Positions 1-22,691 are shown, counted from the stretch's first letter. The stretch is DNA of 26,889 bases from a virus (IMGVR_UViG_2537562020_000004); one strand, 5' to 3'. A program made the numbers and translations. Notes: generated by a model not told the origin, from the letters alone.

Positions 1-222
1 GCCCATAATGCGGGCAGTTGCCCGGCATCCAACGCCATTCATGGCCATATCAATGATTTTCTGGTGCGTACCGGGTTGAGAAGCGGTGTAAGTGAACTGC
101 AGTTGCCATGTTTTACGGCAGTGAGAGCAGAGATAGCGCTGATGTCCGGCAGTGCTTTTGCCGTTACGCACCACCCCGTCAGTAGCTGAACAGGAGGGAC
201 AGCTGATAGAAACAGAAGCCAC
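1..222 (-). CDS. insA: IS1 InsA (N-terminal 74 codons, truncated by window edge)
   Basis: GTG start (rc of 220-222), translation [12 protein letters not shown]...ARIMG matches InsA zinc-finger/HTH N-terminus. The ORF-track ORF 39..251(-) is in a different frame and is not insA. Confidence 0.8.
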
Positions 223-277
223 TGGAGCACCTCAAAAACACCATCATACACTAAATCAGTAAGTTGGCAGCATCACC
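1..277 (-). mobile_element. IS1: IS1 insertion sequence, left terminal 277 bp (element continues beyond window start)
   Basis: Reverse complement of 255-277 is GGTGATGCTGCCAACTTACTGAT, the IS1 terminal inverted repeat as I recall it; rc of 1-222 encodes the InsA N-terminus. Confidence 0.85.
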
Positions 278-278
278 T

Positions 279-380
279 AATGACGTCAGATTTGCCGTAA
301 ACCTGGATGCCTTATCGCGTAGCGGTGTAAAGGTCAACCCGGATGTCTTAATGCTCGCACGGAAGAAAAATGATGGATAA
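279..380 (+). pseudogene. yfiR: yfiR 3' remnant (last ~33 codons), truncated at its 5' side by the IS1 insertion
   Basis: Open frame [33 protein letters not shown] begins directly at the IS1 end and its TAA (378-380) overlaps the dgcN start, the arrangement expected for the yfiR-yfiN-yfiB operon. Identity is inferred from synteny, not from sequence recall. Confidence 0.5.
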
Positions 381-1596
381 CGATAATTCTCTTAATAAGC
401 GCCCCACGTTTAAAAGAGCATTACGCAACATCAGTATGACCAGCATATTTATCACTATGATGCTGATCTGGTTGCTGCTTTCCGTGACCTCGGTGCTGAC
501 CCTGAAACAGTACGCGCAAAAAAACCTGGCACTGACAGCAGCAACAATGACTTACAGTCTGGAAGCAGCTGTCGTTTTTGCCGATGGCCCTGCAGCAACT
601 GAAACACTGGCAGCGCTGGGCCAGCAAGGGCAATTTTCAACTGCAGAAGTACGTGATAAGCAGCAAAATATTCTGGCATCCTGGCATTACACCCGTAAGG
701 ATCCAGGCGATACTTTCAGTAATTTCATAAGCCACTGGCTCTTCCCTGCCCCCATCATTCAGCCGATTCGTCACAATGGTGAAACCATTGGCGAAGTACG
801 CTTAACCGCTCGCGACAGTTCAATCAGCCATTTTATCTGGTTTTCGCTCGCCGTACTGACCGGTTGTATTCTGCTGGCATCAGGCATCGCAATTACCCTC
901 ACCCGCCATTTGCACAATGGCCTGGTAGAAGCGCTGAAAAATATCACCGATGTCGTACATGATGTGCGTTCCAACCGCAATTTTTCCCGACGAGTTTCGG
1001 AAGAACGTATCGCTGAGTTTCACCGCTTCGCTCTCGACTTCAACAGTCTGCTGGATGAAATGGAAGAGTGGCAGCTTCGTTTACAGGCTAAAAATGCGCA
1101 GCTTCTACGTACCGCGCTACATGACCCATTAACCGGGCTGGCTAACCGCGCAGCGTTTCGTAGCGGCATCAACACGTTGATGAACAATTCCGATGCCCGA
1201 AAAACGTCGGCGTTACTATTTCTTGATGGCGATAATTTCAAATACATCAATGATACCTGGGGTCATGCGACGGGCGATAGAGTCTTGATTGAAATCGCAA
1301 AACGGTTAGCTGAATTTGGCGGGCTGCGACATAAAGCATACCGCCTGGGCGGCGATGAATTCGCTATGGTGCTCTATGATGTACAGTCGGAATCTGAAGT
1401 GCAGCAGATATGTTCAGCACTGACACAAATCTTTAATCTCCCGTTTGATCTTCATAATGGCCATCAGACCACCATGACATTAAGCATTGGTTACGCGATG
1501 ACCATTGAGCACGCCTCTGCGGAAAAATTACAAGAGCTTGCCGATCACAATATGTATCAGGCCAAACACCAGCGTGCCGAAAAGCTGGTGAGATAA
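370..1596 (+). CDS. dgcN: Diguanylate cyclase DgcN (YfiN), 408 aa, membrane-anchored GGDEF protein
   Basis: N-terminal TM segments, HAMP-like region, GGDEF motif (RLGGDEF); 408 aa length and downstream yfiB match the YfiN locus. Confidence 0.9.
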
Positions 1597-1611
1597 CAAG
1601 GATATATCGAT

Positions 1612-2094
1612 ATGATAAAGCACCTGGTAGCACCCCTGGTTTTCACCTCACTAATACTGACTGGCTGCCAGTCCCCTCAGGGAAAGTTTACTCCTGAGCA
1701 AGTCGCCGCTATGCAATCTTATGGATTTACTGAATCCGCCGGCGACTGGTCGCTGGGCTTATCAGATGCCATTCTGTTCGCAAAAAATGACTACAAATTG
1801 CTCCCGGAAAGCCAGCAACAGATCCAAACCATGGCAGCTAAATTGGCCTCGACAGGGCTAACACATGCCCGTATGGATGGACACACCGATAACTATGGTG
1901 AAGACAGTTACAACGAAGGCTTATCATTGAAACGGGCGAATGTCGTGGCCGATGCATGGGCTATGGGTGGACAAATTCCACGCAGCAATCTCACCACACA
2001 GGGTTTAGGAAAAAAATATCCCATAGCCAGTAACAAGACCGCCCAGGGCCGCGCCGAGAACCGCCGCGTCGCAGTGGTGATTACTACCCCTTAA
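1612..2094 (+). CDS. yfiB: OmpA-family outer membrane lipoprotein YfiB, 160 aa
   Basis: Signal peptide with lipobox (LILTGC), OmpA-like C-terminal domain (NRRV near C-terminus); position immediately after dgcN. Confidence 0.9.
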   Translation: MIKHLVAPLVFTSLILTGCQSPQGKFTPEQVAAMQSYGFTESAGDWSLGLSDAILFAKNDYKLLPESQQQIQTMAAKLASTGLTHARMDGHTDNYGEDSYNEGLSLKRANVVADAWAMGGQIPRSNLTTQGLGKKYPIASNKTAQGRAENRRVAVVITTP

Positions 2095-2546
2095 AACACC
2101 AGCAAACAGATAAAAAAGGGCCAGCCAATTGGCCAGCCCTTCTTAACAGGATGTCGCTTAAGCGAAATCTTAGTTAAGACGCTCCCAATAAAACCACATA
2201 AAAAACATATAATTATAATAAAAACAATTAGTTAATTTAATTTTTAATGCAGTGAATTGCAATATTCTGCAACCTCCGCCGCCACTTTGCCGCCACTTAA
2301 AGCTTTATACCACACAGACTTTAGTATACCCGAGTGAAACGCTAACACATGAGGTAGTTGGAAAATTTCCGTATATGTTGTAATATTGATACGCATTATA
2401 TGATTTTTACCTGATATAATGTAATTATTAGCTTCAAAATTATTTTTGCACGAATCAGGTATTACCAAGTAGTTGTCAGTTTTTAAAAACCCAACATCCT
2501 AAAATTAGCATTGTTTTTTAACCACAAAACATCCACGGAGAAGAAC

Positions 2547-3356
2547 GTGTCAAAAAAGGATACAATCCAGATTATCGATATCAGGATGCAGAGACCAATC
2601 ATAGCAAGAATAGAAGAAGAAAATTTAAATTTGACATTGCAAATGTCAGATAAAGCCACATTATCTGGTGCGACAGTTAGTTTTTTCACCCCAAATAACG
2701 TTTCTATATTCTTATCCTCAGCAAAAAAAGAGCTCTCAAAATCCAATTCTATATATAAAAGTCTTTTTGGAAAAATACACAAAACCAAACATAAAAACTT
2801 TAAAATTTCCGACAAAGACCTGCCGAGACTCTATAATTACTTTGAATCAATTCAGACGGCCATTATTTCTATGTATACTGCAATTGAGTCTTTTGCAAAT
2901 ATATGCATACCACATGATTATGTTTATGAAAAAAACAATGCCAAGGGAATCAAAGAATCCTATAGCAAAGAGCTAATTGAGCGATATATACCAACAAGTG
3001 AAAAAATAGATAAAATCCTACCGTCTATTTTAAATTGTGATTCGCCTAAAGGTTCAAAACTATGGCAAGATTTTAAAAGCCTTGAGTCACTTAGAAATGA
3101 CATAATTCACCCCAAGACAACAAAGAAAAACACAGAAACAAAAGAAGACTCATCTTTTTTATGCATTTTACTATCAGATGACTTTATAAAAAAAGTTTCC
3201 TGTGGATTTGATTTGGTATCTTATTTTTGCAAACAAGACACTACTCATAGTCTTTTCCCAATGGGTTTCGGTGAAATTGAACTTAAACCTGTCCCAATTA
3301 AAGCCGGTGACTTTGAAAAAGTTGATGATCATGATGAAATAGAATTACCATCATAA
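2547..3356 (+). CDS. AT-rich hypothetical protein (~270 aa) with a HEPN-like R-x4-H motif; prophage-border cargo gene
   Basis: Long ORF with strongly AT-biased codon usage unlike its neighbours; GTG start 2547 preceded by GGAG (2537-2540); motif SLRNDIIH at nt 3093-3110; followed by a hairpin. No family recognised. Confidence 0.6.
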   Translation: MSKKDTIQIIDIRMQRPIIARIEEENLNLTLQMSDKATLSGATVSFFTPNNVSIFLSSAKKELSKSNSIYKSLFGKIHKTKHKNFKISDKDLPRLYNYFESIQTAIISMYTAIESFANICIPHDYVYEKNNAKGIKESYSKELIERYIPTSEKIDKILPSILNCDSPKGSKLWQDFKSLESLRNDIIHPKTTKKNTETKEDSSFLCILLSDDFIKKVSCGFDLVSYFCKQDTTHSLFPMGFGEIELKPVPIKAGDFEKVDDHDEIELPS

Positions 3357-3472: not shown

Positions 3473-4513
3473 TTAATCTTTCCATTTAAAACCATTACAT
3501 AATGTTAAAGGATTAAATGTTACAGCCTCCTCAAGATGATCCGGGGAGAAATGTGCATACTTCATAGTTTCACGAATATTCGCATGACCGAGTATACGTT
3601 GCAGCACAAGAATATTCCCGCCATTCATCATAAAATGAGCGCCGAAGGTATGACGCAGAACGTGTGTCTTTTGCCCTTCCGTCAGTTCGATATCCGTTAG
3701 TTTGAGCATCTTTTTAAACTCCTGATAGCAAGGCTTAAACATCTTTCCCTGCCTTTCAGATAATTCGTCATACAACCATTTTGGGATCGGAACGGTTCGA
3801 TTCTTTTTCCCTTTCGTTTTGGTGAAGGTCAGTTTATGTGGCGAGAGCTGGGGACGTGTCAACCTCTCAGCCTCACCCCATCTAGCACCTGTTGCAAGAC
3901 AAATCTTAACAATCATGGTGAGGTCTTCTTTTCCGTATTGCTCGCATGCCTGAAACAATTTCGGAATTTGAGACAAAGTGAGCCAAGACATTTCTTTCTC
4001 GGCTTCCTTGAAAACACGGACTCCATCAAGTGGATTTGGTAAGCTCCACTCCCCTAGCCTTTTGAGCTCATTAAATACAGCCTCAAGATATTGTTGCTCA
4101 CGATTGACAGTTATCGGTTTAGCAATCCATTTTGCCGGGTCTTTATGATAGCCATTATCTATCTCCCCCCGAAGTCGGCGGTCACGGTAATGAGCCCAAT
4201 CTTTAGCAGTAAGGCGGGATGCAATAGGGTCACCAAGTCCATTACACACGATTTGAAGTTTAGCTAACCGCGACTTACTGGCGACCAGTGCCTGTCCGTG
4301 TAAATTATGCCAAAGCTGGATAATCTCACTTAAGCGTCGGCGGTCTTCTTTCTTGCCGAGCCACGGCTTATCCTCACTCTCACTTTTCGTAAATGCTTCG
4401 AATGCCTCGGCCTCACCTTTGGTATTGAATTGCCGACGTATACGCCGCCCTTCTCGACCATTTGGATAGAGCTCGCATAACCATTTGCCATTTTTTTGCT
4501 TACTTACAGTCAT
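3473..4513 (-). CDS. int: Phage integrase, tyrosine recombinase (346 aa)
   Basis: C-terminal catalytic region HVLRHTFGAHFMMNGGNILVLQRILGHANIRETMKYAHF typical of tyrosine recombinases (R..H..R..Y); located at the prophage end next to the repressor. Confidence 0.9.
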   Translation of the reverse strand: MTVSKQKNGKWLCELYPNGREGRRIRRQFNTKGEAEAFEAFTKSESEDKPWLGKKEDRRRLSEIIQLWHNLHGQALVASKSRLAKLQIVCNGLGDPIASRLTAKDWAHYRDRRLRGEIDNGYHKDPAKWIAKPITVNREQQYLEAVFNELKRLGEWSLPNPLDGVRVFKEAEKEMSWLTLSQIPKLFQACEQYGKEDLTMIVKICLATGARWGEAERLTRPQLSPHKLTFTKTKGKKNRTVPIPKWLYDELSERQGKMFKPCYQEFKKMLKLTDIELTEGQKTHVLRHTFGAHFMMNGGNILVLQRILGHANIRETMKYAHFSPDHLEEAVTFNPLTLCNGFKWKD

Positions 4514-4882: not shown

Positions 4883-5743
4883 TTACACGTGTTTTTCCAA
4901 TGTGAAAACTACAGCCCCGGCAGGAGTAATGTCTGTAATGTTGCATTCAAACTCAGCAGACTTATTTGACAACCTGACTTTTCCACCGGGCAAGCGAATT
5001 ACATCAAAAACATCAAGAGCGCCGTCGATATCAATTAACCAGCGACCATTACTTATATTCGAAGCAGAACAGTCGACAAGCCAAGAGGCAGCTACACCGT
5101 CAACAAAAATCAATTCCCCTGAGTTAGAAGGAATCATTGAGGGGTCAGGATGCCACGTTCCTGCATCCTTAAGCTCACCAGATTCAAGACGAGATTTTTT
5201 AATAGAAAAACCAGATGTGACATCTTCCCTGTTAGCTCGCATTTGCCCCTTGCCTGTTGCTAACCATTCCAGTGACGTATCGGTATCAAGAGCGCATGTA
5301 ACAACAACATCACCAGGGAAAAAATCTCGCCTTACCCATGTGCTAATTGTGCCAGAGGAAATGCCGAGCAAATCACCGAGCTCCTTTTGCATGGTAAAGC
5401 CATACGCATCAAGAATCCTACGCAAAACGGTTTTACCACCATTCGTCATAATCTCGTCATAAAGCTCTTTGCCTTTTAACTTGCAACTGGCTCGCTCGTG
5501 ATTTGCATTTGCAAGTTCTCCATTTACAAGCCAATTGATATCAGCTCCCGTGTCAAGACAACACCTAACTATGACATTGCCAGGTATTGCATCACGCTGA
5601 ACCCAGCCGCTAACGCTGTGTTTAGCGATACCTAGCAGGTCAGCCAAATCCTTTTGCATCTTGACCCCATAGGCTGACATTAAGCGTTCCAATACGCCGT
5701 TCGTTGCACTAACACGCCACTGAACATCAAGCTCAGAACTCAT
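4883..5743 (-). CDS. cI: Phage 186-type CI immunity repressor (286 aa) with tandemly duplicated N-terminal DNA-binding domain
   Basis: Two consecutive ~60 aa segments (AYGVKMQKDLADLLGIAKHSVSGWVQRDAIPGNVIVRCCLDTGADINWL and AYGFTMQKELGDLLGISSGTISTWVRRDFFPGDVVVTCALDTDTSLEWL) resembling the 186 CI N-terminal domain, plus a CI-like C-terminal domain; divergent from apl/cII. Confidence 0.85.
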   Translation of the reverse strand: MSSELDVQWRVSATNGVLERLMSAYGVKMQKDLADLLGIAKHSVSGWVQRDAIPGNVIVRCCLDTGADINWLVNGELANANHERASCKLKGKELYDEIMTNGGKTVLRRILDAYGFTMQKELGDLLGISSGTISTWVRRDFFPGDVVVTCALDTDTSLEWLATGKGQMRANREDVTSGFSIKKSRLESGELKDAGTWHPDPSMIPSNSGELIFVDGVAASWLVDCSASNISNGRWLIDIDGALDVFDVIRLPGGKVRLSNKSAEFECNITDITPAGAVVFTLEKHV

Positions 5744-11858: not shown

Positions 11859-12863
11859 CTAATTTACATGTATGTAGAGTTCACCGTCGCCAGACCAATC
11901 GGGACACTCTAAAACAAGCCCAAACTGCTTGAATATTTCATCAATGATTATTGTTATCTCCCGAAAATCACCAAAACCTGTAATGTGCTGGTCATTAAAC
12001 TTCCCATAAAGATTCTGAAAAGCAATGCCTAATTCTGATAATTGATATCTTATCTTTGAGTTGGATAGTGTAAGGGATAGCTTTGGATCGTATTCTTTAA
12101 TATTGATGTTTAGAGAATGGACATAACCCATCGCATAAGCATAAGAGTTGATGATTAGCCTGATACGTTTTTTTACTTCAAGATACATGTCATTCAGAGA
12201 AATATTACCGTACTTATAACCCCAGATGAGTTTTTCAATCTCGTCAGATACTTCATTTACAACAGTGTCAAGATTCTCTAAAAATAAATCGACAGTTTCT
12301 TGAGGGGCAGACCCCGAAGACATGTAATTAGCGAGATATTCAGACCATGCACGCGTGGCTGAGATAAGAAGCGCGCTACCATACTCGTTGACTGTAAAGT
12401 TTTGGGCTAAGCATGTTAGTAAGTTTTTTTCATGTACGTGCACTAATTCATGGTGAATGCGATGGATGACTGCGAGGTATCCTTCTTCTTTCAGTTTTAA
12501 GAAGCTACCATCATTGAAAAGCTCAACAAAAAAATCAATCGATAGCACAAGGGTATATTCTTCATATAGCCCATCATTGCCAATTTTTGTTACTAACTGC
12601 CCGACGGCTGCGCCCTGTTTGCTATTGGTAAATGAACTAGGGGATTTGTGTTGGTAAGAGGATGTTACCTTTTGAAGAGCTTCACTGAAGTTATAGGAAA
12701 CAATCACGCATTTTAATTTGGAGATATCAAGATTGAGATTCTTTGTTAAAGCTCGGATAGCTTCTAGTGTGAAATTACCGATATTATTTGCTTCTTGCTC
12801 AGTAGCGAAACCTTCGAGGGTTATTTTAAAATCAGTTTCCAAAATATTAATCTCCGCGCCCAT
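11859..12863 (-). CDS. AT-rich hypothetical protein (334 aa) with HExxH motif (HELVH); cargo gene between portal gene and cos
   Basis: Long ORF with AT-biased composition contrasting with adjacent phage genes; HRIHHELVHVHE at aa 135-146 (nt ~12438-12452); co-directional with Q/P. Confidence 0.7.
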   Translation of the reverse strand: MGAEINILETDFKITLEGFATEQEANNIGNFTLEAIRALTKNLNLDISKLKCVIVSYNFSEALQKVTSSYQHKSPSSFTNSKQGAAVGQLVTKIGNDGLYEEYTLVLSIDFFVELFNDGSFLKLKEEGYLAVIHRIHHELVHVHEKNLLTCLAQNFTVNEYGSALLISATRAWSEYLANYMSSGSAPQETVDLFLENLDTVVNEVSDEIEKLIWGYKYGNISLNDMYLEVKKRIRLIINSYAYAMGYVHSLNINIKEYDPKLSLTLSNSKIRYQLSELGIAFQNLYGKFNDQHITGFGDFREITIIIDEIFKQFGLVLECPDWSGDGELYIHVN

Positions 12864-21815: not shown

Positions 21816-22691
21816 CTAGCCTCGTAAATATCGTTTAGTAAATTTCGTGTTTGGTCTGGATGATAGGATTTGTCTTTCTATTTCACTATCACAGTCTATA
21901 TAGTCTAGTGTATTAGCTTCTATAAGTTTGTTCACGTCAATATTTTTTGCATCGATTATGTTGGCATTTCTAAGGTTTGCATTGGTGTATTCCACTTTAT
22001 CCAAATCACACTCTCTGAGTACGCAACTTTTCATTTCCGCATTGGAAAAATCCCCACCATATAAATAGCAGCCTTCAAAAATAACACCGTTTAACTTTGA
22101 ATCCTGAGCTTTAATATTTTTTATTTTACACTTTATAAATTTTACGTTTTTCATTTTGCTCTTGCTAATATTTAATGCCTGGATTGTACATCCAGTGAAA
22201 GAACAGTCTCTTATGTTAGATTTTTCCATATTTAACCCAGATAGTTCTGAGGTTTTAAAGTGTAAGTATTTAATGGTAAAAAGGTCACCCAACTCCATTC
22301 TGGGTATGTCTATATTGAAGACACCTTTATTGTTGAGCTGTCTTATTATTTTTATTTTTTGTATTTTCAAATCAACATTAACGTGCTTAGCTAAGTTTCC
22401 CAAATCCTCAAGAAGTTCATTAATCGTTTCTTTGTTTTGTCTTCTGTATTCAAAGTAATAAAGGATGACACCTAATACAAAAAAATCCAAAATGGATGAA
22501 TTTGCATTTATTAGGAACCCAGACAGGAATGAATCATTGTAATTACCATAGTGTATAGAGGCAAGTGTTACGCCAAATGCATATAAAATAAAAATAATAA
22601 ACACGTGCTTCATTTTGCATAAGGATTGTATTATTGGTTTTATGGCATCAATTTTGTTCATTGCTGCAGCAGCGAAAGATTTAAAAGTCAT
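21816..22691 (-). CDS. AT-rich membrane protein (291 aa) with two N-terminal TM helices and C-terminal pentapeptide repeats; cargo gene between S and V
   Basis: AT-biased ORF antiparallel to the tail genes; hydrophobic segments HVFIIFILYAFGVTLASI and ILDFFVLGVILYYF; ~14 consecutive 5-residue repeats with central hydrophobic residue (SKMKN VKFIK CKIKN ... ANLRN ANIID). Confidence 0.7.
   Translation of the reverse strand: MTFKSFAAAAMNKIDAIKPIIQSLCKMKHVFIIFILYAFGVTLASIHYGNYNDSFLSGFLINANSSILDFFVLGVILYYFEYRRQNKETINELLEDLGNLAKHVNVDLKIQKIKIIRQLNNKGVFNIDIPRMELGDLFTIKYLHFKTSELSGLNMEKSNIRDCSFTGCTIQALNISKSKMKNVKFIKCKIKNIKAQDSKLNGVIFEGCYLYGGDFSNAEMKSCVLRECDLDKVEYTNANLRNANIIDAKNIDVNKLIEANTLDYIDCDSEIERQILSSRPNTKFTKRYLRG

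Follow-up and report, generated by a model that had tools for sequence, protein, structure and literature searches.

To our knowledge, YfiR is the sole brake known for the diguanylate cyclase DgcN (YfiN). In E. coli it acts as a direct periplasmic inhibitor of this enzyme (PMC4992967, PMC10127611), and the role ascribed to YfiB is the sequestering of YfiR (PMC4992967, PMC10127611, PMC3375315). DgcN itself has no I-site (PMC10127611, PMC11327459), and its over-expression can exhaust GTP, halt growth and increase tolerance to antibiotics (PMC10127611). From its native locus yfiN is expressed at a low level, a chromosomal YfiN-GFP fusion being undetectable (PMC4992967), and in K-12 the deletion of yfiR alone was insufficient for growth arrest (PMC10127611). 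The second element of importance here is the insertion sequence IS1, whose intramolecular target-primed transposition is described as giving one fixed end, variable other ends and a lost target duplication (PMC9330008, section 5.2.1). Fusion promoters formed by IS1 are documented in a passage of the same source that cites Prentki et al. 1986 (PMC9330008).

Here, we describe a locus in which IS1 meets the Yfi module. The analysed stretch of DNA (26,889 nucleotides, in the following the window) begins inside an IS1 element and continues with the last part of yfiR, with dgcN and yfiB, and with a P2-family prophage. The explanation which we consider well supported and probable is that IS1 was inserted in yfiR and then caused an adjacent deletion, leaving a yfiR null allele and a DgcN that would be without inhibitor.

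Positions 1-277 represent the IRL-proximal 277 bp of a 768-bp IS1B-like element on the minus strand, as judged from the sequence, the comparison of inverted repeats, the RefSeq annotation and an alignment of six copies. The left inverted repeat (IRL) lies at ~243-277 with its tip at 277. Window 241-277 reads ...CCATCATACACTAAATCAGTAAGTTGGCAGCATCACC, which corresponds to the left inverted repeat of IS1 (GGTGATGCTGCCAACTTACTGATTTAG...) in reverse complement, and base 277 closes the element, its final letters ...AAGTTGGCAGCATCACC matching the reverse-complemented repeat. The imperfect terminal inverted repeats of the IS1 family (GGTGATGCTGCC... / GGTAATGACTCC...) are found at both ends and pair as expected, IRL being seen in the window and the right repeat (IRR) in the related genomes E54 and E1535. 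In both of these the element measures 768 bp, and window 1-277 is identical to 768-bp copies of IS1 annotated in complete genomes. Reverse-complement translation of 1-222 (minus strand) yields the 5' part of insA, that is the first 74 codons from a GTG start at 222-220, reading away from dgcN. RefSeq labels the element in relatives as 'IS1-like element IS1B family transposase, programmed frameshift', and both the size (768 bp in relatives; 277 bp in the window) and the insA-insB' frameshift are those of the family. A consensus scan additionally located a minus-strand promoter-like site of IS1 itself within the IRL.

The yfiR remnant follows immediately at 278-380 (plus strand) and is base-for-base the same as positions 2001-2103 of the intact yfiR locus of strain L37 (locus L002). 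Position 278 supplies the third base of codon 139, codons 140-172 (33 residues) occupy 279-377 and the stop codon is at 378-380. With exact matches of 277 and 103 bases chance is no concern for the identity of IS1 and of yfiR. In Pfam the 33 residues align to positions 116-143 of 143 of PF13689 only (E = 2e-6), and intact YfiR spans profile positions 5-143. The YfiR/HmsC family (PF13689, DUF4154) is characterized by a full-length periplasmic domain and a signal peptide. The remnant has neither start codon nor signal peptide and has lost 80% of the domain, therefore it is a pseudogene fragment; in relatives RefSeq describes it as 'incomplete; missing N-terminus'. Judged by this residual coding content, yfiR is a null allele. 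The list of open reading frames also contains a 38-codon fusion frame (264-380, plus strand) with a TTG start in the IRL, five IS1-encoded residues and the 33 C-terminal residues of YfiR, its stop overlapping the start of dgcN. A Shine-Dalgarno match upstream of this frame was looked for in TCATACACTAAATCAGTAAG and none was found; having no recognisable ribosome-binding site, the frame is probably untranslated.

The gene dgcN (yfiN; 370-1596, plus strand) is an intact open reading frame for a diguanylate cyclase with a periplasmic CHASE8 sensor domain and a GGDEF domain in Pfam, and its protein is 100% identical to DgcN of the yfiR-positive strain L37. The yfiR stop (378-380) overlaps its start at 370, and a Shine-Dalgarno-like GGAAG is located at 361-365. 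The GGDEF motif is intact and GLRH stands where the RxxD of an I-site would be. Also intact is yfiB (1612-2094, plus strand), recognised from its reading frame and the Pfam OmpA domain as the gene of an OmpA-family lipoprotein, with the protein accession WP_000589847.1 common to yfiR-positive and yfiR-negative genomes. Of the tripartite YfiBNR module the locus thus retains dgcN and yfiB in full and yfiR as 33 codons. As the known role of YfiB is the sequestration of YfiR and yfiR is lost, YfiB would be without its partner here. Compensatory dgcN mutations were sought in the window's lineage and none were found. An initial annotation, made from the window alone, had already set the IS1 end at 277, recognised the last 33 or so yfiR codons behind it, called yfiR interrupted and considered dgcN and yfiB intact, and in all this it was right.

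For the DNA upstream of the window we relied on relatives drawn from 5,426 complete E. coli genomes. Four of these (E54, E1316, E1648 and E1654) are 100% identical over window 1-900, E54 even across window 1-2184. The genome of E1535, isolated from a human diarrhoeal stool in Argentina, is the only one matching the first 25 kb of the window, prophage included, with one mismatch, at base 16, in 4,742 bases compared directly. No genome in the collection agreed with the window at base 16 and in the prophage alike. In all five genomes the far end of IS1 is joined to codon 119 of yfiL, after ...GCCAGCACAATACG, and 575 bp are missing if compared to the intact L37 locus (L002 1426-2000). The lost segment comprises the 3'-terminal 10 nt of yfiL (its stop and the two sense codons before it, 120-121), all 149 bp between yfiL and yfiR, and yfiR codons 1-138. 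As a result yfiL reads 22 nt into IS1 and its C-terminus is altered from RLN (stop) to RVMTPTY (stop). The 9-mers that flank IS1 in the closest genomes differ from each other (CACAATACG vs TAATGACGT), so there is no target duplication in the deletion-form genomes. The duplication of 8-9 bp that accompanies IS1 is missing from the window's lineage and occurs, with 8 bp (TAATGACG), in TUM9803 and ECCWS199. The deletion accounts for this absence, which is no argument against the identity of IS1.

Junction-spanning queries detected the exact right junction of the window in 31 of the 5,426 genomes, and 28 of these also possess the yfiL-IS1 left junction, both junctions being single uninterrupted matches. 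Wherever deletion-form genomes carry a serotype label, it is O6:H16. They include TW10598, FMU073332 and CDC O6:H16 isolates, which we take to be enterotoxigenic E. coli. With tens of copies per genome IS1 is a classic source of mis-assembly, and the IS1/yfiR junction might be suspected as a mis-join at this repeat; but the junction is identical in 31 independently assembled complete genomes, 28 of them share both junctions, and related architectures have it as well, which reduces an assembly artefact to a negligible probability.

Since the window starts inside IS1, its own left junction is unseen, and the deletion form has to be read from its relatives. The beginning of the window is compatible with either left side. 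It could belong to a simple IS1 insertion, in which the window's genome keeps yfiR codons 1-139, the promoter and the duplication upstream of IS1, and such an allele with identical right junction does exist in ~12 genomes (TUM9803, AR_0085 and the ECCWS199 group). Against this, E54, E1316, E1648, E1654 and E1535 are all of the deletion form. Further, window base 16 is an A which, in the alignment of six IS1 copies, belongs to a variant patch of 42 SNPs of the E54 type and is absent from the three simple-insertion copies aligned. We therefore hold a simple insertion in the window's own genome to be very unlikely, and we are confident that this genome would prove to have the deletion form.

The initial annotation had expected just this kind of allele, a simple insertion that leaves the beginning of yfiR upstream of IS1, and here the closest genomes disagree with it, as in all of them IS1 adjoins yfiL codon 119. 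It had also predicted a 9-bp target duplication; the deletion lineage has none, and the one found in other lineages is 8 bp long. Its statement that dgcN and yfiB are cut off from the native upstream region was correct, the intergenic region being absent from the closest genomes. It had named an intact yfiR elsewhere as the finding that would speak against the loss of the gene, and the search of the collection for one was negative. Of the genomes, 45 lack the deleted segment, a number able to hold all 28 deletion-form genomes, and in 5,381 genomes it was detected, at 5,382 places and never on a plasmid. With this near-absence of double copies, no second yfiR copy was detectable by the deleted-segment search across the collection, which is consistent with the deletion-form genomes having no spare copy of the gene.

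The same right junction occurs in further architectures. In TUM9803 and AR_0085 it is combined with retained yfiR codons 1-139 and the 8-bp direct repeat TAATGACG. Ten genomes give a 199-bp junction match, and ECCWS199, the one checked at base level, has a simple insertion with 8-bp duplication; the nine others are assumed to carry the ECCWS199 allele. In ECCWS199 the IS1 has a 1-bp deletion inside the IRL, with site and duplication the same as at the window's right junction. The shorter match had suggested a separate insertion 1 bp away, which this 1-bp deletion rules out for ECCWS199. FG92-1, finally, has the right junction together with a left IS1 end located 57 bp deeper in yfiL. In the alignment of six genomes the right junction is thus invariant, there are three different left junctions, and the loss of 575 bp is contiguous with the IRR end. 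One junction is as in the undeleted allele, the other lies at a new site on the same side, the DNA in between is lost and the element is kept. A fixed end, variable other ends, the kept element and the lost duplication together mark the scar of an IS1 adjacent deletion.

Reconstructed from extant genomes, the order of events and the mechanism of deletion would be as follows. An IS1 of the IS1B type would have entered yfiR at the boundary of codons 139 and 140, with the IRL end towards dgcN and with formation of the 8-bp target duplication TAATGACG; the undeleted state is still found in other E. coli lineages. Later, in the window's own diarrhoeal lineage of the O6:H16 type, the IRR end of the same IS1 would have attacked in cis, at a distance of 583 bp, by intramolecular, one-ended transposition, the classical 'adjacent deletion' of IS1. 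This event would have taken out the left copy of the duplication, yfiR codons 1-138, all DNA between the two genes and the 10 nt at the end of yfiL, and it would have left IS1 and the right-hand junction untouched, giving the product yfiL'-IS1-'yfiR(33 codons)-dgcN-yfiB.

The same structure would result if yfiR and the 3' end of yfiL had each received an IS1 in direct orientation and the two copies had undergone homologous recombination. Such a second copy has a counterpart in NT1N31 and NT1N34, where the 3' end of yfiL harbours an independent, equally oriented IS1 no more than 1 bp from the left junction of the deletion lineage. The genomes of the window's lineage have at least 40 IS1 places, and products of both routes are without direct repeats (PMC9330008). 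Nevertheless, the NT1N31 left flank ends with CACAATAC, not with CACAATACG as in the deletion lineage, and is thus off by 1 bp; no genome with both IS1 copies was found. FG92-1 and the O121 strain 201805972 have IS1-anchored deletions with other endpoints, as is expected of repeated one-ended events. Recombination is also less parsimonious than one IS1 and one event, and we judge it unlikely. As to the adjacent deletion, which remains our preferred explanation, the left flank cannot prove that simple insertions and deletion forms share an ancestor, as it is nearly invariant: its 1.4 kb show 0-2 SNPs among all architectures and the intact strain. This flank was considered as a haplotype marker for descent vs recurrence and was dropped, the intact strain being equally close. 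As this stretch of yfiR appears to be a hot spot for IS1 (see below), the same site may have been struck more than once.

Within one lineage there are two versions of IS1 at this locus, differing by the contiguous patch of 42 SNPs and having identical ends and junctions. The patch covers IS1 positions 91-507 (L001 vs L003) and separates E54, E1316, E1648 and E1654 from E1535 and the rest; in the alignment no base differs between the IS1 copies of E1535 and TUM9803. At the last diagnostic position of the patch the window has the base of the E54 type, but its prophage is of the E1535 type. The patch looks like the result of gene conversion from another IS1 isoform. Other strains with an IS1 at this locus show changes in dgcN. 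NT1N31, with yfiR intact and IS1 at the yfiL end, has a second IS1 ~60 bp into dgcN (L006 3344-3799). In AR_0085, which has the yfiR::IS1 allele, a frameshift is annotated in dgcN, one base being absent from a GGGG run (L009 16844-18069); the lesion may be genuine or an error in sequencing the homopolymer. DgcN of ECCWS199 shows one substitution, at residue 375.

The gene yfiR appears to be hit by IS1 recurrently. The junctions were counted with queries consisting of a 100-bp IS1 end and 100 bp of flank over ~600 bp upstream of the junction; five same-orientation yfiR sites were verified at base level and the other positions are derived from BLAST spans. In the orientation of the window we found yfiR junctions in at least 50 genomes at no fewer than ~9 positions, in the opposite orientation in at least 13 genomes, again at ~9 positions or more. 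The interior of dgcN served as control and gave at least two genomes with at least ~1 position in the same orientation and at least three genomes with at least ~2 positions in the opposite one. This means at least ~18 IS1 positions in ~600 bp of yfiR vs at least three in the dgcN control of equal length, the three listed dgcN positions all being in the first ~65 bp of the gene. Five distinct same-orientation sites, from different E. coli lineages and each marked by a duplication of 8-9 bp or a deletion of its own, are crowded within 45 bp of yfiR, equivalent to about window 254-298 (L002 1977-2021; loci L013-L016). They comprise the window's own site with the duplication TAATGACG, those of XJ5.2 (CGCCTTTTG), VG1046-3E9 (GATTTGCCG) and LR-24 (TAAACCTG(G)), and the independent IS1A of the O121 strain 201805972 with its own deletion into yfiL. 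According to these counts the 3' third of yfiR looks like a hot spot for IS1, driven either by target preference or by selection for the loss of yfiR. At independent positions no orientation bias was found in yfiR (at least ~9 each way), which speaks against selection in favour of an IS1 end that reads outwards.

In O121 201805972 (L013 170-1100) the IS1A is located 8 bp downstream of the window's site and its other end is inside yfiL, so that in an unrelated background yfiR is again deleted and dgcN intact, a convergent architecture. TUM1881 has an IS1 of opposite orientation at essentially the window's site.

What follows for the expression of dgcN is less clear-cut. IS1 is classically polar in both orientations, by Rho-dependent polarity, and the plus-strand RNA across the element, untranslated and C-rich over ~360 nt, fits this behaviour. 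Between yfiL and dgcN the standard scan found no plus-strand promoter-like site above threshold, a scan that flags no native yfiR promoter even in the intact locus; it also predicted no plus-strand intrinsic terminator across IS1. A relaxed scan revealed a candidate hybrid promoter at 264-292 (plus strand), with the -35 element TTGGCA (264-269) in the IRL, a spacer of 17 bp and the -10 element CAGATT (287-292) in yfiR DNA. It is the only plus-strand promoter candidate in window 1-420 under relaxed settings, matches in 5/6 and 3/6 positions, respectively, and stays below the threshold of the standard scan. Such a junction-spanning promoter is putative and would be weak. Transcripts of dgcN-yfiB would be obtained only via read-through from the yfiL promoter across 768 bp of antisense IS1 or from this hybrid promoter, and any DgcN made would be without its periplasmic inhibitor.

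The removal of the intergenic region and the presence of 768 bp of polar IS1 could also have silenced the operon, and the lineage would then be Yfi-null and not derepressed in DgcN. This is suggested by the lack of any plus-strand promoter-like site that passes the standard scan from yfiL to dgcN, by the 3/6 match of the -10 element in the single relaxed candidate, by the long, untranslated and C-rich stretch before dgcN, and by the classical polarity of IS1 as a matter of general knowledge. The insertions in yfiR, about equal in both orientations with at least ~9 positions each, carry no sign of selection for an outward end, and native expression is already very low (PMC4992967). On the other side, no plus-strand intrinsic terminator is predicted across IS1, dgcN keeps its own Shine-Dalgarno-like GGAAG, and IS1 ends can form functional fusion promoters (PMC9330008). 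That dgcN and yfiB are undecayed also speaks against silencing, but the lineage is too young for decay to inform. We regard a silent operon as possible rather than probable and favour low-level, unrepressed DgcN. With about even chances, dgcN mRNA would be below the native level, the enzyme would be constitutively unrepressed, and the outcome would be a modest constitutive contribution to c-di-GMP. In the initial annotation the net effect, derepression versus polar silencing, was called unpredictable from sequence, and this assessment stands, the weak hybrid promoter candidate being all that is visible.

Directly downstream of yfiB the window consists of a P2-family prophage of ~33 kb, integrated at the 3' end of rplS. 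It occupies window 2170-26889 and continues beyond; in E1535 it is found at ~430-33100 of locus L007. The last 15 nt of rplS (ttagttaagacgctc) are at window 2170-2184, and E1535 has an intact rplS on the opposite side of the prophage. Of the deletion-form genomes that were inspected, E54 is without the prophage, and related ones are present in E1535 and TW10598. The same prophage is also located beside intact yfiR in other strains, e.g., JKHS016, where the match begins at window 278. Between the prophage end and the integrase (3473-4513, minus strand) there is a gene for an orphan protein of 269 aa (2547-3356, plus strand) with no Pfam match and a weak PADLOC match to a DRT-associated HEPN model (RTasHEPN, E = 1.2e-4); from its position and this match it may be phage-carried defence or accessory cargo. 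Two further cargo genes encode a protein of 333 aa without Pfam or PADLOC match (11859-12863, minus strand) and a pentapeptide-repeat protein of 290 aa (21816-22691, minus strand; PF13599, E = 4e-19). Their positions are those of the two classical P2 variable regions (old/tin and Z/fun). A second integrated element, P2/186-like, lies beside pheL upstream of the window (E1535, L012 1-11116). It has genes for an integrase, Cox, a replication endonuclease, ParM and a pair of S8 peptidase and AAA ATPase, and it is absent in TUM9803, AR_0085, ECCWS199 and FG92-1, which have raiA-pheL there instead.

A natural yfiR null is fixed in 28 complete genomes of human diarrhoeal isolates from several continents. 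The genotype has to be corrected compared with a plain interruption, as the deletion extends into yfiL and takes away the intergenic control region too. It follows that there can be no reversion by excision of IS1 and that complementation designs must allow for this loss; on this reading of the junctions the loss of yfiR is irreversible. The deletion form offers a natural experiment on the role of the Yfi module in a pathogen and on whether an insertion sequence placed before the cyclase offsets the loss of the repressor. Anyone who reads pseudogene calls at this locus will profit from knowing of the apparent IS1 hot spot in the last third of yfiR. One could go further and see in the loss of yfiR, with dgcN-yfiB kept, an adaptive and lineage-defining change in a globally distributed O6:H16 enterotoxigenic clade and a part of a wider pattern of repeated yfiR knockouts by IS1 among IS1-rich E. 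coli, a proposal which we consider improbable. If it were true, DgcN would be permanently unrepressed, the balance of motility and biofilm or the stress tolerance would be shifted, and there would be a parallel to the yfiR mutations of persistent P. aeruginosa small-colony variants.

We found no literature report on the yfiR-IS1 allele, and the pseudogene fragment of yfiR is already annotated in RefSeq. The IS1-flanked deletion of yfiR is a fresh instance of a well-known type of event. With the adjacent deletions of IS1 and Tn9 it shares the intact IS1, one unchanged junction, a new site nearby and the loss of adjoining DNA together with the direct repeats (PMC9330008). It differs from them in being known from extant genomes only, where recombination between two IS1 copies leaves the same scar. 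The candidate promoter resembles the IS1 fusion promoters upstream of blaTEM-1 and acrEF in the -35-like TTGGCA within the IS1 repeat and in the 17-bp spacing (PMC9330008, Table 1). In contrast with those, its -10 element (CAGATT) is poor and putative, and insertions of the opposite orientation are about as frequent. With the pseudogenisation driven by insertion sequences in pathogenic E. coli and Shigella the locus has in common the abundance of IS1 (at least 40 places), the fixation within a lineage and the target, a c-di-GMP gene, like the degenerate DGC genes known from Shigella (PMC11327459, PMC12795559). In Shigella dgcN itself has a nonsense mutation, whereas here the regulator is lost and the enzyme kept. 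The closest described counterparts are the loss-of-function alleles of yfiR in the YfiBNR (TpbB) system, known from P. aeruginosa small-colony variants and from engineered K-12 and UPEC mutants. In these, too, the periplasmic inhibitor is lost and the cyclase and YfiB are intact (PMC3375315, PMC4992967, PMC10127611). However, in those cases the native promoter is still in place or the mutants were designed to be non-polar, whereas in the present allele the upstream region is deleted and IS1 stands before dgcN, so that a fall in transcription may compensate for the derepression of the protein.
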